From: a virus
Taxonomy: Duplodnaviria; Heunggongvirae; Uroviricota; Caudoviricetes
Direction: 5' to 3' (one strand)
Virus record (IMG/VR): IMGVR_UViG_2778261571_000008
Length of the DNA: 5,990 nucleotides
Shown piece by piece: positions 1 through 5,990 of this stretch (positions are counted from its first letter, which is position 1; the number at the start of each line of letters is the position of its first letter). Made by a program: the position numbers and the translations under genes. The notes under the pieces are model-generated. The model worked only from the letters and a program-made list of their open reading frames with translations. It did not search any database and was not told where the DNA came from.

Positions 1-16
1 TTTTTGTGAAGTCGTC
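1..16. repeat. Left copy of 16-bp terminal direct repeat TTTTTGTGAAGTCGTC
   Basis: Exact 16/16 identity with positions 5975-5990, read directly from the sequence. Chance identity at both exact termini is negligible. Confidence 0.9.
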
Positions 17-322
17 TAATTCATCGCCGAAATATTCTCGATAATCTGGAACGCGCTGTTCTGAAATTGCGTTTGTGGCGATGTCTGGTTTATCGGCTTG
101 TAGTTTATCGACGTTTGCCAGATATACGCCCAGCGACCCAGCTGACCCCATTACCGCCAGCATTCTGCTACGTTCTGCGGCATTGGGAGCGATTGAGGCC
201 AATTGCGCTTTAATTTTGCTTACCTCTTCATCAATGACCCTCTGAATAAGCGGGCCGTTTGCCTGAAGAACTTCCTTAGTAATTTCCTGTGCCAACTGGC
301 GAATATATTCTTTGCGTGTCAT
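1..322 (-). CDS. Hypothetical acidic protein (orfA), N-terminal segment; runs off the window start with no stop
   Basis: ATG at 322-320 with a GGAG-like SD about 10 nt upstream. Open for 107 codons (MTRKEYIRQLAQEITKEVLQ...YREYFGDELDDFTK) to position 2. Absent from the ORF track because it has no stop in the window. Frame-continuous with the ORF entering at 5990 (see 5868-5990). No family recognised. Confidence 0.55.
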   Translation of the reverse strand, partial: MTRKEYIRQLAQEITKEVLQANGPLIQRVIDEEVSKIKAQLASIAPNAAERSRMLAVMGSAGSLGVYLANVDKLQADKPDIATNAISEQRVPDYREYFGDELDDFTK

Positions 323-343
323 TTCTTGTTATCTCCGTTCATC

Positions 344-655
344 TTATTTCTGAAGAAAACTCATACCGTGCCCGATCTTGTTCGCAACCTTTCCGGCAAG
401 CATCCGCCTAATATGGGTTTCATTTAATACGTCGTGAGTCACACTATCTTCGCCTGCCATACATTCCGGCATCTGGCTGAATAACGCGGCGGCGGATTCG
501 TCGAGAATTTCACTGAGTAAATCAGGCAGCATGTCAACGATACGATCTGCCTCGGCGCTCATTGCTTTATCAAAAGAGCGTTTATCTAATGTTTCCTGTG
601 AAGGCTTGTAATTATTACCAACCCGATTAAGGTAACTATTATTTGGGTAGTACAT
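344..655 (-). CDS. Hypothetical small acidic protein (103 aa)
   Basis: ORF-track ORF; ATG at 655-653 preceded by GAGGAAA SD with about 9-nt spacing. Stop TAA at 346-344 lies 21 nt before the orfA ATG, same strand, so operon context. No recognisable motif. Confidence 0.55.
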   Translation of the reverse strand: MYYPNNSYLNRVGNNYKPSQETLDKRSFDKAMSAEADRIVDMLPDLLSEILDESAAALFSQMPECMAGEDSVTHDVLNETHIRRMLAGKVANKIGHGMSFLQK

Positions 656-681
656 GATAAATTTCCTCGATTAATTAGTTT

Positions 682-1200
682 CTATAAAATGGCGTTGCTA
701 CATGAAAAATATGATCTTGCTGCGTATAATCGCCGTGGTTTTTCACCAGAACACGGCATCAACATCCAGCGCGGTTTGTGTTTAGTTAGCGCCTTGCGCG
801 GCTGCTGATGCGGCTTGCGCGGGCTGGCGGCGTTCTCTGCTACTGATACGATCTCAAGATTTGAAAGGCGGTTATCAGTGCCGTTGCCATTTTTATGATT
901 TACGCAAAAACCGGGTTTAATCGCATCAAAACCGCAAGTCAGCCAGATCACAATATTATGCGCTCTGAATAGTTTCTTTTTGCCGTTAACTGTTACGACA
1001 ACCCTGTAATAACGGTGCTTGTTACGGCATTTATATTTACGACCATCACGCTTAATTTTGTATTTCTTTTCAGACGGCTTAAGGCATAGCTCATGACCGT
1101 CACGATCTAAACCTGTTTGCGATCTGCTGTTTACTGTAAAGCGCCGTTTAATTTCTTCCTGATACTCAGGCGGCGGTATTAGTGGCGTTGGCATTGACAT
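682..1200 (-). CDS. HNH endonuclease (HNH_3-type motif)
   Basis: Translation contains RAHNIVIWLTCGFDAIKPGFCVNHKNGNGTDNRLSNLEIVS, the classic H...N...HxNGNxxDNRxxNL HNH signature; the His of VNH is encoded at 897-895. Preferred start is ATG at 1200-1198 (SD GAGTGAGGT, 5-nt spacer) rather than the track's GTG at 1212, which lies inside the SD. Stop TAG at 684-682. Confidence 0.8.
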   Translation of the reverse strand: MSMPTPLIPPPEYQEEIKRRFTVNSRSQTGLDRDGHELCLKPSEKKYKIKRDGRKYKCRNKHRYYRVVVTVNGKKKLFRAHNIVIWLTCGFDAIKPGFCVNHKNGNGTDNRLSNLEIVSVAENAASPRKPHQQPRKALTKHKPRWMLMPCSGEKPRRLYAARSYFSCSNAIL

Positions 1201-1215
1201 GTTTAACCTCACTCA

Positions 1216-1404
1216 TTAACGTTTACGTCCGCGATAGAAATATTCCAGGACTTCACTACGAATAAAGCGGAGCGGCGTTCCTTCAGGGCTAACAGGAATT
1301 GGAAAGCCGGGGATTTTATCTACCCACCTGAGAATCGTGCGCTTGCTTACACAAAAAAGTCGAGCGACTTGTTCGCAGCTTATCAATTCGGGAAAGTCGT
1401 TCAT
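1216..1404 (-). CDS. AlpA-family / excisionase-like HTH DNA-binding protein (about 62 aa)
   Basis: Translation MNDFPELISCEQVARLFCVSKRTILRWVDKIPGFPIPVSPEGTPLRFIRSEVLEYF fits the AlpA/Xis-type HTH pattern (helix, TIyrw, FP-P, then W/E-rich tail). Strong SD AAAGAGGTGA 6 nt before ATG at 1404-1402; the track's start at 1413 is GTG and overlaps the SD. Stop TAA at 1218-1216 is 15 nt before the HNH start. Confidence 0.75.
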   Translation of the reverse strand: MNDFPELISCEQVARLFCVSKRTILRWVDKIPGFPIPVSPEGTPLRFIRSEVLEYFYRGRKR

Positions 1405-2310
1405 TTTCATCACCTCTTTAAAAAAGAGCGGTGGCTGAAAAATATGGAGGAAACAACCACCGCCGTGAACGAAAATAGGCTATATCGGAGAAGTTGATAT
1501 AAATATTTTAATCCCCGCGTCGTACGTGTGCAAACACGGCTTCATTGTCGAATATGGCGTTTTTGTGTAATTAGCAGATCTGGTTTTGATACCCGTCATC
1601 GATATTCAGTCAACTAAAAGGCTGGTTTTGGCCTAAGTGTTGAATGGCACTTTTGGAACGCGTCCGATTTCCACGGTTAATCAGCCACCACGATCCAGAC
1701 GGTAGAATGCGGCTTTCAGCCTGCTGAAATGTGTAACATTCCTGCGCTTTAACAAGATCGGGCTATCTGGTACAGATGGCGGCGGCGATCTGTATTTGGT
1801 GGCGGACTAATCTGCGCAGAATCCCGCTGATTTCTTGATGGCAATAAAGCTAACCATAGCGATTCTAAGCGCCTCATCTTTGCCGGTATGCAAACGGTCA
1901 GCCATGTCACATTGAGCGCGTCAGAGGCGCTACTGTGAAGCGGTGCTATAGCTGCGGCGTATCATTGCCAGCGTCATCGTCGTCACGGGAAAAGCTGTAC
2001 ATGCGGGGATCGAGATAGTCGATACAGAAAACCCCGTCATACAGGAAAGCGAGTGCCGTAGCGCAAGCGAAGGCACCAGGCATGTAGCTACGCGCTGAAT
2101 GCGAGTCACAACAGCTTAACAAAAGCACATACATCGCGATAACGCGGTAACACATCCGGCACCACATGCGTAACTGTGTGTTACCCCAGACGTGGCGCGG
2201 CTCTCAGGCTGATTTTGTCTTTTCCGGTCCCACATCTCGGGTACTTTCCAAAACTTTCTACTTTATAAAAATGGAGTAGAAAACAGAGTGAAATCTTTTT
2301 TTTCTGATTT

Positions 2311-2330
2311 ATCTGGTACCATCTGGTACC
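2311..2330. repeat. Perfect tandem 10-bp direct repeat ATCTGGTACC x2 (forward iterons)
   Basis: Read directly: atctggtacc atctggtacc. Each unit contains a GGTACC hexamer. Confidence 0.85.
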
Positions 2331-2366
2331 CATAGAATATATGTAACTACATCAATAACTTAAGTT

Positions 2367-2400
2367 GGTACCACATCCGGTCCCACATCGGTCCCACATC
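2367..2400. repeat. Three tandem inverted-orientation iterons (GGTACCACATC-C-GGTCCCACATC-GGTCCCACATC)
   Basis: Read directly; 11-12-bp periodicity, about one helical turn. The reverse complement GATGTGG(T/G)ACC matches the forward iteron ATCTGGTACC at 8-9 of 10 positions. Confidence 0.85.
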
Positions 2401-2423
2401 CTGCATCTGGTACCATTTTGACC

Positions 2424-5388: not shown

Positions 5389-5480
5389 GATTTACTCTCC
5401 GGTCGCTGTATAATTAACGTGATTTAAAACATTGTTCCGATGTCACCACTTAACTTGTTGTCAACGATTTCGCATTGTTT

Positions 5481-5506
5481 GCCCGGTAGTGATTGCCGGG
5501 CTTTTT
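5481..5506 (+). terminator. Terminator-like hairpin plus T5, plus-strand orientation, in the intergenic region between orfB and the 97-aa gene
   Basis: GCCCGG-tagtgattg-CCGGGC (6-bp GC stem, 5481-5501) followed by TTTTT (5502-5506). A perfect TATAAT hexamer lies on the plus strand at 5409-5414, about 70 bp upstream. Confidence 0.3.
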
Positions 5507-5517
5507 CTTGCCTGTGA

Positions 5518-5867: not shown

Positions 5868-5990
5868 TTATTCCCCCATATAGAAATAGTCATCTAATTG
5901 ATCGCGTAGTTCTTTTGGTCCGTTAAACCATTCATCAATGGTCGCATTAAATACCGGATCGCCATCGAAGTAGGTTTTTGTGAAGTCGTC
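5868..5990 (-). CDS. orfA, C-terminal segment (enters window at 5990; stop TAA at 5870-5868)
   Basis: Reverse-complement translation from 5990: DDFTKTYFDGDPVFNATIDEWFNGPKELRDQLDDYFYMGE-stop. The first five codons are encoded by the 16-bp repeat and are in the same frame as the final DDFTK of the 1-322 segment. Joined product is 142 aa. Confidence 0.55.
   Translation of the reverse strand, partial: DDFTKTYFDGDPVFNATIDEWFNGPKELRDQLDDYFYMGE
5975..5990. repeat. Right copy of 16-bp terminal direct repeat TTTTTGTGAAGTCGTC
   Basis: Exact identity with positions 1-16. Confidence 0.9.

Follow-up and report, generated by a model that had tools for sequence, protein, structure and literature searches.

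The stretch of DNA analysed here (the window; 5,990 nucleotides of the IMG/VR virus record IMGVR_UViG_2778261571_000008) carries an operon headed by genes for an alpA-like regulator and a predicted HNH endonuclease, followed by the small genes orf103, orfA, orfB and orf97, and we describe this operon, the leader in front of it and its relatives. The ends of the window share an identical 16 bases (positions 5975-5990 repeat 1-16), so that the true molecule is a circle of 5,974 bp. The identical circle was recovered as a Logan contig (L016, run SRR3989754; 6,004 nt, 30 of them a k-mer overlap), in which the sequence is permuted and orfA unbroken. All genes of the window lie on the minus strand. 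An earlier note on this DNA had listed five co-directional genes (alpA-like, HNH, orf103, orfA and orfB), and all five were found where it had placed them, with intergenic gaps of 15, 26, 21 and 5 nt and, as read from the sequence, a Shine-Dalgarno element at good spacing ahead of every start (Table 1). Read over the circle junction (322..1, then 5974..5868), orfA is one uninterrupted open reading frame (ORF) of 142 aa. Across 9–13 distinct alleles per gene, taken from related loci, the median ratio of nonsynonymous to synonymous substitution rates (dN/dS) was 0.11-0.19 for the alpA-like gene (0.11), orf103, orfA, orfB (0.13) and orf97, showing that these are real genes rather than chance ORFs and that they are under purifying selection. 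The conserved gene string has orf97 as its sixth member.

Table 1 Coordinates of the genes and noncoding features of the window.
Feature	Position	Strand	Description
alpA-like gene	1404-1216	minus	62 aa, excisionase-family helix-turn-helix (HTH)
HNH_3 endonuclease gene	1200-682	minus	172 aa, predicted I-HmuI type
HNH catalytic motif	903-853	minus	VNHKNGNGTDNRLSNLE, residues 100-116, includes His102 and Asn114
orf103	655-344	minus	103 aa, acidic helical hairpin, family-less
orfA, first 107 codons	322-1	minus	long N-terminal helix, then tyrosine-phenylalanine (YF) motif array begins
orfA, last 35 codons and stop	5974-5868	minus	end of YF-motif array, including C-terminal DDYFYMGE
orfB	5862-5518	minus	114 aa
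orf97	5388-5095	minus	97-aa basic protein, 129 nt past orfB
Shine-Dalgarno of alpA-like gene	1418-1411	minus	AAGAGGTG, 6 nt ahead of ATG at 1404
Shine-Dalgarno of HNH gene		minus	GAGG, 6 nt ahead of ATG at 1200
Shine-Dalgarno of orf103		minus	GAGGAAA, ahead of 655
Shine-Dalgarno of orfA		minus	GGAGAT, ahead of 322
Shine-Dalgarno of orfB		minus	GGGGGA, ahead of 5862
Predicted sigma-70-type promoter	1534-1505	minus	-35 TTTGCA at 1534-1529, 18-nt spacer, -10 TAAAAT at 1510-1505; consensus scan
Predicted terminator hairpin	1464-1420	minus	between promoter and alpA-like gene, abuts Shine-Dalgarno of the latter
Hairpin 5' arm	1464-1454	minus	GGCGGTGGTTG
Hairpin loop	1453-1438	minus	16 nt, TTTCCTCCATATTTTT, includes CCTCCATAT
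Hairpin 3' arm	1437-1427	minus	CAGCCACCGCT; 11-bp stem
T-run of terminator	1425-1420	minus	spacer C, then T6
Second HTH_17 protein gene	4401-4156	minus	81 aa, heads replication operon
Superfamily 3 (SF3) helicase gene	4064-2475	minus	529 aa; Pfam DUF5906, 9e-22, C-terminal part of P4-type primases
Terminator after helicase gene	2451-2432		
Iteron-like direct repeats	2146-2416		ATCTGGTACC (3-4 copies) and GGTCCCACATC (~5 copies), around an AT-rich stretch
cis element	4965-4910	minus	~55 nt, AATTTTCGGACA..GCGCGCGCGTAGCCGACGTCAGCGGC..GACTGGCG, marks operon 3' end
TATAAT	5409-5414	plus	perfect match, between orfB and orf97
Terminator-like hairpin	5481-5509	plus	strong, GCCCGGTAGTGATTGCCGGGC then T5, ~70 nt beyond TATAAT

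Family loci were gathered by megablast and exact-protein look-ups, and 16 of them were compared. The alpA gene, an HNH gene and orf103 were present throughout and an orf97 homologue in most; replicons, recombinases and downstream genes differed from locus to locus. The gene string is the constant core of a mosaic Escherichia family, which comprises circles of 6-12 kb as well as islands and occurs in three forms. The first are IntZ-adjoining islands between eutA and eutB (e.g. L001, L002 and L007), and the orf103-orfB segment was detected in 36 of 5,426 complete E. coli genomes, always in the chromosome. The second are circles of 8-12 kb, which in L009-L015 have the operon alongside a serine recombinase gene and one for a Rep-like HTH_36 protein; the finished plasmid CP058022.1 (8,873 bp) has the window's helicase, at 81% identity, instead. 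The third, and smallest, are circles of ~6.0 kb like the window, with L017 (SRR10691982) and L020 (GCA_054832635.1) carrying different orfA alleles. Such independent recoveries with differing alleles indicate that the 6-kb form is a lineage and not an assembly accident. Eight relatives and the window itself were circular contigs with terminal overlaps equal to the assembler k-mers. The 6-kb forms have eight genes in all, and the operon and the helicase module make up their whole gene content. The 6-12-kb circles (L009-L015, L006, L016, L017 and L020) were common among draft-assembly contigs, whereas complete RefSeq E. coli genomes had the module in the chromosome only and orfB found no match in PLSDB (see below); finished assemblies and plasmid databases seem to lack such small circles systematically.

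The leader of the operon combines a predicted promoter with a predicted terminator hairpin, which begins ~35 nt past the likely transcription start. In the leaders of the relatives the -10 element TAAAAT was near-invariant and the -35 element conserved, and hairpin and T-run were found in all 15 family leaders examined. The window leader folds with -28.8 kcal/mol (z = -3.4), and the loop keeps CCTCCATAT, which contains an anti-Shine-Dalgarno-like CCUCC. Seven different stem sequences occur among the family leaders, and eight of nine stem columns showed more than one pair type with compensatory change on both sides, all pairs being canonical, in a count that used the 3' arms as anchor. This count is biased toward pairing because it was fitted to stems predicted one by one, but the raw sequences themselves plainly show the compensatory changes. 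RNAalifold predicted no structure on the MAFFT alignment of the leaders, in which the 5' arms were misaligned. A boxA-like CGCTCTT at the terminator was not conserved in the relatives and was dismissed.

Judged by these features, the leader hairpin is predicted to be an intrinsic terminator placed ahead of the operon, and with a terminator between promoter and genes the operon would be expressed only by read-through. The signal for read-through may be phage-dependent antitermination, since lambdoid late control and P4 immunity (the latter as summarised in PMC10111431) likewise place a short terminated transcript between a promoter and its operon. In lambdoid late control, the PR' promoter yields a short terminated transcript that the Q antiterminator extends. 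As an analogy only, the leader resembles this arrangement in a promoter that looks constitutive, a conserved -10-like element among the first bases transcribed and a terminator that follows within ~80 nt, ahead of the operon. In contrast to the lambdoid case, no Q-binding site was identified in the leader and a comparison with phage DNA, made to look for mimicry of a helper late promoter, gave no similarity. No covariance-model match to the P4/P1-type immunity RNAs C4 or isrK was obtained anywhere in the window with Rfam at E <= 1.

The first gene of the operon is probably its regulator. The earlier label 'AlpA-like' holds at the superfamily level, with a match to PHROG 66 ('excisionase and transcriptional regulator', 8e-7), but not at the level of the family, as there was no Phage_AlpA (PF05930) match in Pfam and HTH_17 was hit below its cut-off (24.6 bits against 27 bits; 3e-5). 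Because the circle lacks an integrase, the protein is hardly an excisionase, and a regulatory role would fit better.

For the second gene, the HNH assignment that had been made from the catalytic motif was borne out by Pfam PF13392 (HNH_3; 29.9 bits against a cut-off of 24.8), together with PHROG 59 (6e-17) and the generic candidate model 'homing endonuclease' of PADLOC (3e-9). Its sole relative in the PDB was the nicking homing endonuclease I-HmuI (1U3E, E = 1.3e-4). By these matches the strongly basic protein (isoelectric point (pI) 10.2) is an I-HmuI-type HNH_3 enzyme and a predicted nickase. A different type of HNH protein, PF01844, is represented by HK97 gp74, which assists cos cleavage; the window HNH matched HNH_3 only in Pfam and gave no PF01844 match. 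With no terminase in the window and terS four or five genes away in the relatives, these data do not support the earlier suggestion that the HNH works with a terminase in cos-type packaging.

HNH_3 is the classic homing-endonuclease family, and very divergent HNHs replace each other at this one site as in homing-endonuclease turnover. The locus might therefore hold no system at all, only a selfish HNH gene beside a regulator, with the small ORFan genes as unrelated lineage-specific travellers. We regard this as very unlikely. An HNH gene came next after alpA in each of the 16 loci compared, no HNH-less 'empty site' was seen among them, and the slot was filled by at least four mutually very divergent HNH types (mosaic table and translations); constant presence combined with sequence turnover argues against casual insertion. 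Furthermore, gene order, short gaps and the shared leader are conserved, the genes are under purifying selection, and in CP058022.1 a non-homologous motif-array protein fills the orfA/orfB slot. The constant slot with divergent occupants recalls NixI, an I-HmuI-like HNH/N nickase with which PLE, a Vibrio satellite, acts against its helper; the NixI homologues of other satellites are likewise very divergent, with only 20-25% identity (PMC9410903).

NixI is toxic if expressed alone (PMC9410903), and the basic HNH is followed, after a 26-nt gap, by the acidic helical orf103, which would suit a toxin-immunity pair in the manner of colicin DNases and Im proteins that serves plasmid addiction. In that case the inhibitor should covary with the nuclease. 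Orf103, however, stays 92-96% identical among elements whose HNHs lack detectable mutual similarity, near-identical HNH types are paired with diverged neighbour genes, and orf103 has no similarity to Im or other immunity families. A nuclease-immunity pair of HNH and orf103 was thus rejected for want of covariation, and toxin-immunity is the least probable of the explanations considered here.

The proteins downstream of the HNH, described in the earlier note as rich in aspartate and glutamate and without a recognisable motif, are indeed moderately acidic, with a pI of 5.2 for orf103, 4.5 for orfA (4.05 in its C-terminal half) and 5.1 for orfB and with 15-18% of these two residues, and they belong to no recognisable family. 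Searches of Pfam, PHROGs, NCBIfam and PADLOC returned no match for orf103, orfA, orfB or orf97, and single-sequence and profile searches of the PDB with the first three gave nothing below E = 0.09. Orf103 was modelled by AlphaFold2 (AF2) as a confident helical hairpin (mean predicted local distance difference test (pLDDT) 85), for which a fold search found no relative. In tblastn searches against 50,697 phage records, orfA had no match at E <= 1 and orfB none at E <= 10, and orfB had no match in the 72,556 plasmids of PLSDB. Only Escherichia holds homologues of orf103, orfA and orfB (332, 259 and 71 clusters at the 90% identity level, the 259 being those of orfB). In an exhaustive profile search of 1.84 billion representative proteins, orfA retrieved only seven clusters, of which one was a spurious repeat protein and three were fragments or copies with frameshifts; genuine relatives of orfA number about four in this set.

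OrfA and orfB carry arrays of a short aromatic motif. In orfA there are four [YW]F motifs, set within acidic stretches (REYFGDE, KTYFDGD, DEWFNGP and DDYFYMGE), where 0.34 were expected from composition (P < 5e-5, against composition-preserving shuffles, which were used throughout). The unit ELDDFTKxYFDG varies in copy number among orfA alleles, with the window allele being one unit short of most. OrfB consists of a helical N-terminal half, a Q/E/P-rich linker and two PD(L/I)xSYF motifs, the second of which forms the C-terminus; both are invariant in the homologue alignment, and the enrichment in YF motifs is significant (P = 0.0015). In CP058022.1, the orfA/orfB slot is occupied by a 126-aa protein (L003 1668-2048) with no BLAST similarity to either, which is built alike, with three DYF motifs (P = 3e-4) coming after a helix at the N-terminus, and which hhalign aligned solely over the motif unit YF-x3-LD-x5-YF-x-G. 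A stand-in with a YF array in this slot points to selection for function at that position. The 91-aa protein adjoining the stand-in ends in NDYF, and acidic-aromatic tails were noticed in other small family proteins (IEDEF, SDKFDC and the SPFGDD of the terminase described below).

Short conserved peptides arrayed on flexible tails typically serve multivalent contacts with an oligomeric partner, and the YF arrays of orfA and orfB may bind such a partner. A resemblance of the YF tails to the C-terminal peptides of SSB (DDDIPF) and FtsZ (DIPAFL), and to the SPFGDD of the terminase, compared by eye, is speculation on our part.

The sixth protein, orf97, is 55% identical in tblastn to yffM of the K-12 element CPZ-55 and 34-58% identical to its counterparts in most relatives; the window orf97 found no match in L002, L005 and L014. 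It had been considered as an Ogr/Delta-type zinc finger, an idea that was abandoned because L001 and L002 do not keep the cysteines.

In the island form and the 8-12-kb circles, orf97 is followed by a small variable gene, an Sf6-type small terminase gene and a gene for a YffP-like protein. The terminase was recognised by Pfam (38.6 bits against a cut-off of 27) and by PHROG 1482 (6e-14). Its likeness to phage terminases, with 32-50% identity to those of F116-like, Sf6 and mEp021-like phages, is limited to the N-terminal DNA-binding part and therefore names no helper phage. Two relatives have a further gene after the terminase and a 128-aa protein, namely a full-length tail tape-measure protein (726-729 aa; PHROG 1538, 4e-100) at 5243-7423 of L006, a 12.2-kb circle, and at 8298-10487 of L002, an IntZ island. 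Neither has any other recognisable tail or head gene; for a small element to carry just a tape-measure gene is uncommon. The window lineage has none of these additional genes. An operon that runs into a terminase gene and sometimes a tape-measure gene is tied to virion packaging and morphogenesis, and the proposal of the earlier note that the operon, not the replication module, is the seat of phage-directed functions was supported in this respect.

The association with virion genes also bears on two other explanations. According to one of them, the operon serves plasmid housekeeping or establishment, that is replication, copy control, partition or entry, for instance with anti-restriction DNA mimics or host-recruiting tail adaptors, and the leader terminator is ordinary attenuation. 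The elements are indeed free circles, the operon and the helicase module are the sole genes of the 6-kb form, and the aromatic-acidic tails of the acidic proteins may resemble the SSB and FtsZ peptides. We nevertheless find a housekeeping role improbable, given that the operon is joined to three maintenance systems (SF3 helicase; HTH_36 Rep-like protein with resolvase; IntZ integration) and is therefore not tied to one replicon, that Pfam and NCBIfam revealed nothing resembling the ArdA, Ocr, Par or Rop-type families, and that the operon of the relatives is syntenic with virion genes.

According to the other, the operon is an anti-phage defence payload of the abortive-infection type, with the HNH as effector and the small proteins as sensors or inhibitors, so that packaging is not needed. 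Defence genes are a frequent part of satellites and small mobile elements (PMC10085698), the leader terminator makes the operon off by default, and HNH types are highly diversified, as in an arms race. While the HNH matches the homing-endonuclease candidate model of PADLOC mentioned above, this model is generic, the other proteins match no system in PADLOC-DB 2.0, and no known defence system was recovered. The operon is moreover the invariant core of the element instead of variable cargo, its small proteins do not covary with HNH type, and relatives co-transcribe it with small terminase and tape-measure genes, which serve transfer. We consider a defence payload about as improbable as housekeeping.

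A member of the family appears to reside in the K-12 chromosome. CPZ-55 (intZ, yffL-yffS; L004; NC_000913.3 2,558,691-2,565,480) occupies the attachment site of the IntZ islands, its YffO is 99% identical to the family small terminase, and its YffP shares 94% identity with the protein that follows this terminase. It retains YffM (the orf97 homologue), YffN, YffO, YffP and an identical 37-nt element (see below), and lacks alpA, HNH, orf103, orfA, orfB and the replication module. By sequence, CPZ-55 looks like a deleted member of a satellite-like family rather than the remnant of a full phage. In the literature searched, no paper connects CPZ-55 or the yff genes with satellites, and CPZ-55 is described only as a cryptic prophage.

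The 37 nt belong to a cis element of ~55 nt at the 3' end of the operon, which in the form AATTTTCGGACA..GCGCGCGCGTAGCYGACGTCAGC..GACTGGCG was also present at 7118-7168 of L004, 8651-8704 of L012 and 8337-8395 of L003. In most relatives aligned it lies 0-35 nt past the stop of the last operon gene (within ~2 nt in most) and, where a resolvase exists, 230-260 nt upstream of the resolvase gene. The 37 nt are 100% identical to CPZ-55 downstream of yffP, which explains ~213 hits in E. coli genomes. We would guess at a candidate pac or res site. An ORF overlapping the element, orf96 (TTG start, 5049-4759), was rejected as a gene, since it is conserved only in the 55-nt noncoding element inside it. 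On the plus strand between orfB and orf97, the TATAAT and the terminator-like hairpin (Table 1) could specify an antisense small RNA of ~85 nt, for which Rfam gave a weak terminator-type match only (E = 0.63).

The replication module consists of a second HTH_17 protein and the SF3 helicase. Only positions 434-781 of the PHROG 1156 primase profile matched the helicase and no primase domain was detected in its 529 aa, so that priming must come from elsewhere. The iteron-like repeats downstream are the probable origin of replication, and this region is also conserved in CP058022.1, the plasmid that has the helicase in common with the window.

Among known satellites, phage-inducible chromosomal islands (PICIs) of Gram-negative bacteria (e.g. 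EcCICFT073, PMC6092414) are similar to the family in their E. coli host, in a small AlpA-type HTH protein that heads the main operon and needs triggering, in a P4-type helicase replication module, in co-directional genes and, for the integrated relatives, in an integrase at one end. The replication module of the window is of the P4/PICI type, HTH_17 plus DUF5906 (PMC10111431), and has iterons, though its helicase is without a primase domain. In contrast to PICIs, the window is a free circle with no integrase or recombinase ORF in 5,974 bp, whereas its integrated relatives have IntZ; it is half the size or less, no terS, ppi, rpp or helper cos site was recognised in it, and its core contains an HNH_3 enzyme and YF-motif proteins, with an Sf6-type terminase and in some cases a tape-measure gene in the relatives. 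Published PICIs are stated to lack a plasmid state (PMC6092414). A PICI identity, brought up in the earlier note by way of comparison, was not upheld, as integrase and packaging component are missing and a plasmid state exists; the AlpA family is reached only below threshold.

Among the closest functional precedents is PLE, which like the window has an I-HmuI-like HNH/N enzyme that is very divergent between elements (a likeness of type), a cluster of three small ORFans and no terminase of its own. In PLE, the small ORFans Gpi, GpsA and GpsB form a cluster that controls packaging (bioRxiv 10.1101/2024.04.22.590561) by manipulating the helper packaging motor. PLE differs in its host (Vibrio) and in being integrated, and NixI and the packaging genes have not been described as one AlpA-led operon. 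With P4, the window has in common a plasmid state and an operon headed by an AlpA homologue, as the P4 left operon Vis-Eta-CI-epsilon-alpha is headed by Vis and ends in the alpha helicase. P4 expression is controlled by premature termination near the promoter (as summarised in PMC10111431). Unlike P4, the window has no C4/isrK-type RNA (Rfam), Sid, Psu, Delta or cos, its helicase has no primase domain, and the proteins are unrelated.

Staphylococcal pathogenicity islands (SaPIs), which have their own TerS and Ppi, resemble the larger relatives in that a small terminase is preceded by small proteins that could block the helper terminase; the window, however, has neither a terminase nor similarity to Ppi, and SaPIs have Gram-positive hosts and repressor-based control. 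[quoted passage not shown] Taken together, the window and its relatives look like a so far undescribed family of very small, satellite-like elements of E. coli that lack an integrase, exist in a plasmid state and have an ORFan core, with CPZ-55 as a relic.

We favour, at roughly even confidence, a phage-satellite operon for helper exploitation or packaging interference that is switched on by terminator read-through. In this model, the sigma-70-type promoter would fire and the leader terminator would keep the operon off until a helper-phage antiterminator, or a similar phage-dependent signal, permits read-through. Read-through would yield the HTH regulator, the I-HmuI-type nickase, orf103, orfA, orfB and orf97. 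The nickase might then cut helper or competing DNA or process the DNA of the element itself, as NixI does for PLE, and the acidic YF arrays on the flexible tails of orfA and orfB might bind and divert a multimeric phage packaging or assembly protein. The larger relatives would add their own small terminase and some of them a tape-measure protein. The role of orfA and orfB would be analogous to that of Gpi, GpsA and GpsB of PLE, Ppi of SaPIs or Rpp of PICIs. Helper dependence, read-through control, nickase targets and binding partners are all inferred in this scheme.

Several points weigh against the satellite-operon model. No helper phage was identified and no evidence for packaging emerged, and scans found no relative in IMG/VR viral contigs or phage genome collections. 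The window lineage has neither a terminase nor a capsid-related gene, no pac or cos site is recognisable in it, and only the relatives supply a link to packaging. The leader terminator could equally serve plasmid-type attenuation or end a small RNA, and an HNH_3 gene beside mobile-element genes could be a simple homing endonuclease. The AF2 model of orfA, a long N-terminal helix with ill-defined short helices, is poor (pLDDT 66, predicted template modelling score (pTM) 0.29) and had no match in a fold search. Finally, orf103, orfA and orfB vary independently of HNH type and terminase type (mosaic table), and by implication neither of these two element-encoded proteins is their partner.

A more specific version, which we consider unlikely as a whole though somewhat less so than the defence and housekeeping explanations, would make the family a new class of plasmid-state, integrase-less mini-satellites of E. 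coli, with a universal core made up of an I-HmuI-type nickase and YF docking-peptide arrays in place of a terminase or capsid-remodelling gene. The arrays would perhaps mimic the tail with which a phage small terminase, or some other partner, attaches to the packaging motor, and thereby capture helper machinery. The operon would be wired to a helper late antiterminator by way of the promoter-proximal terminator, CPZ-55 would be a fossil of the class, and the terminase-less 6-kb lineage would represent a minimal satellite or else live as a parasite on its larger siblings.

For specialists, the surprises are likely to be the link to CPZ-55 and YffO, the recurrent terminase-less 6-kb form, the covarying leader terminator and the YF-motif arrays. 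Even if the satellite-operon model is wrong, the family is a widespread and unannotated small replicon of E. coli. If it is true, the phage satellites of the best-studied bacterium would gain a branch that exists in the plasmid state and has no integrase, and such elements would escape current satellite finders, which require an integrase. The yff genes of K-12 CPZ-55 would gain a function and an origin, with YffO as a small terminase, and read-through of a leader terminator would be a candidate answer to the question of how a helper phage switches on alpA in Gram-negative PICIs. The short acidic YF peptide would offer a possible handle on phage packaging or assembly proteins, and the eight-gene 6-kb forms would be among the smallest self-replicating phage parasites and easy to dissect genetically.

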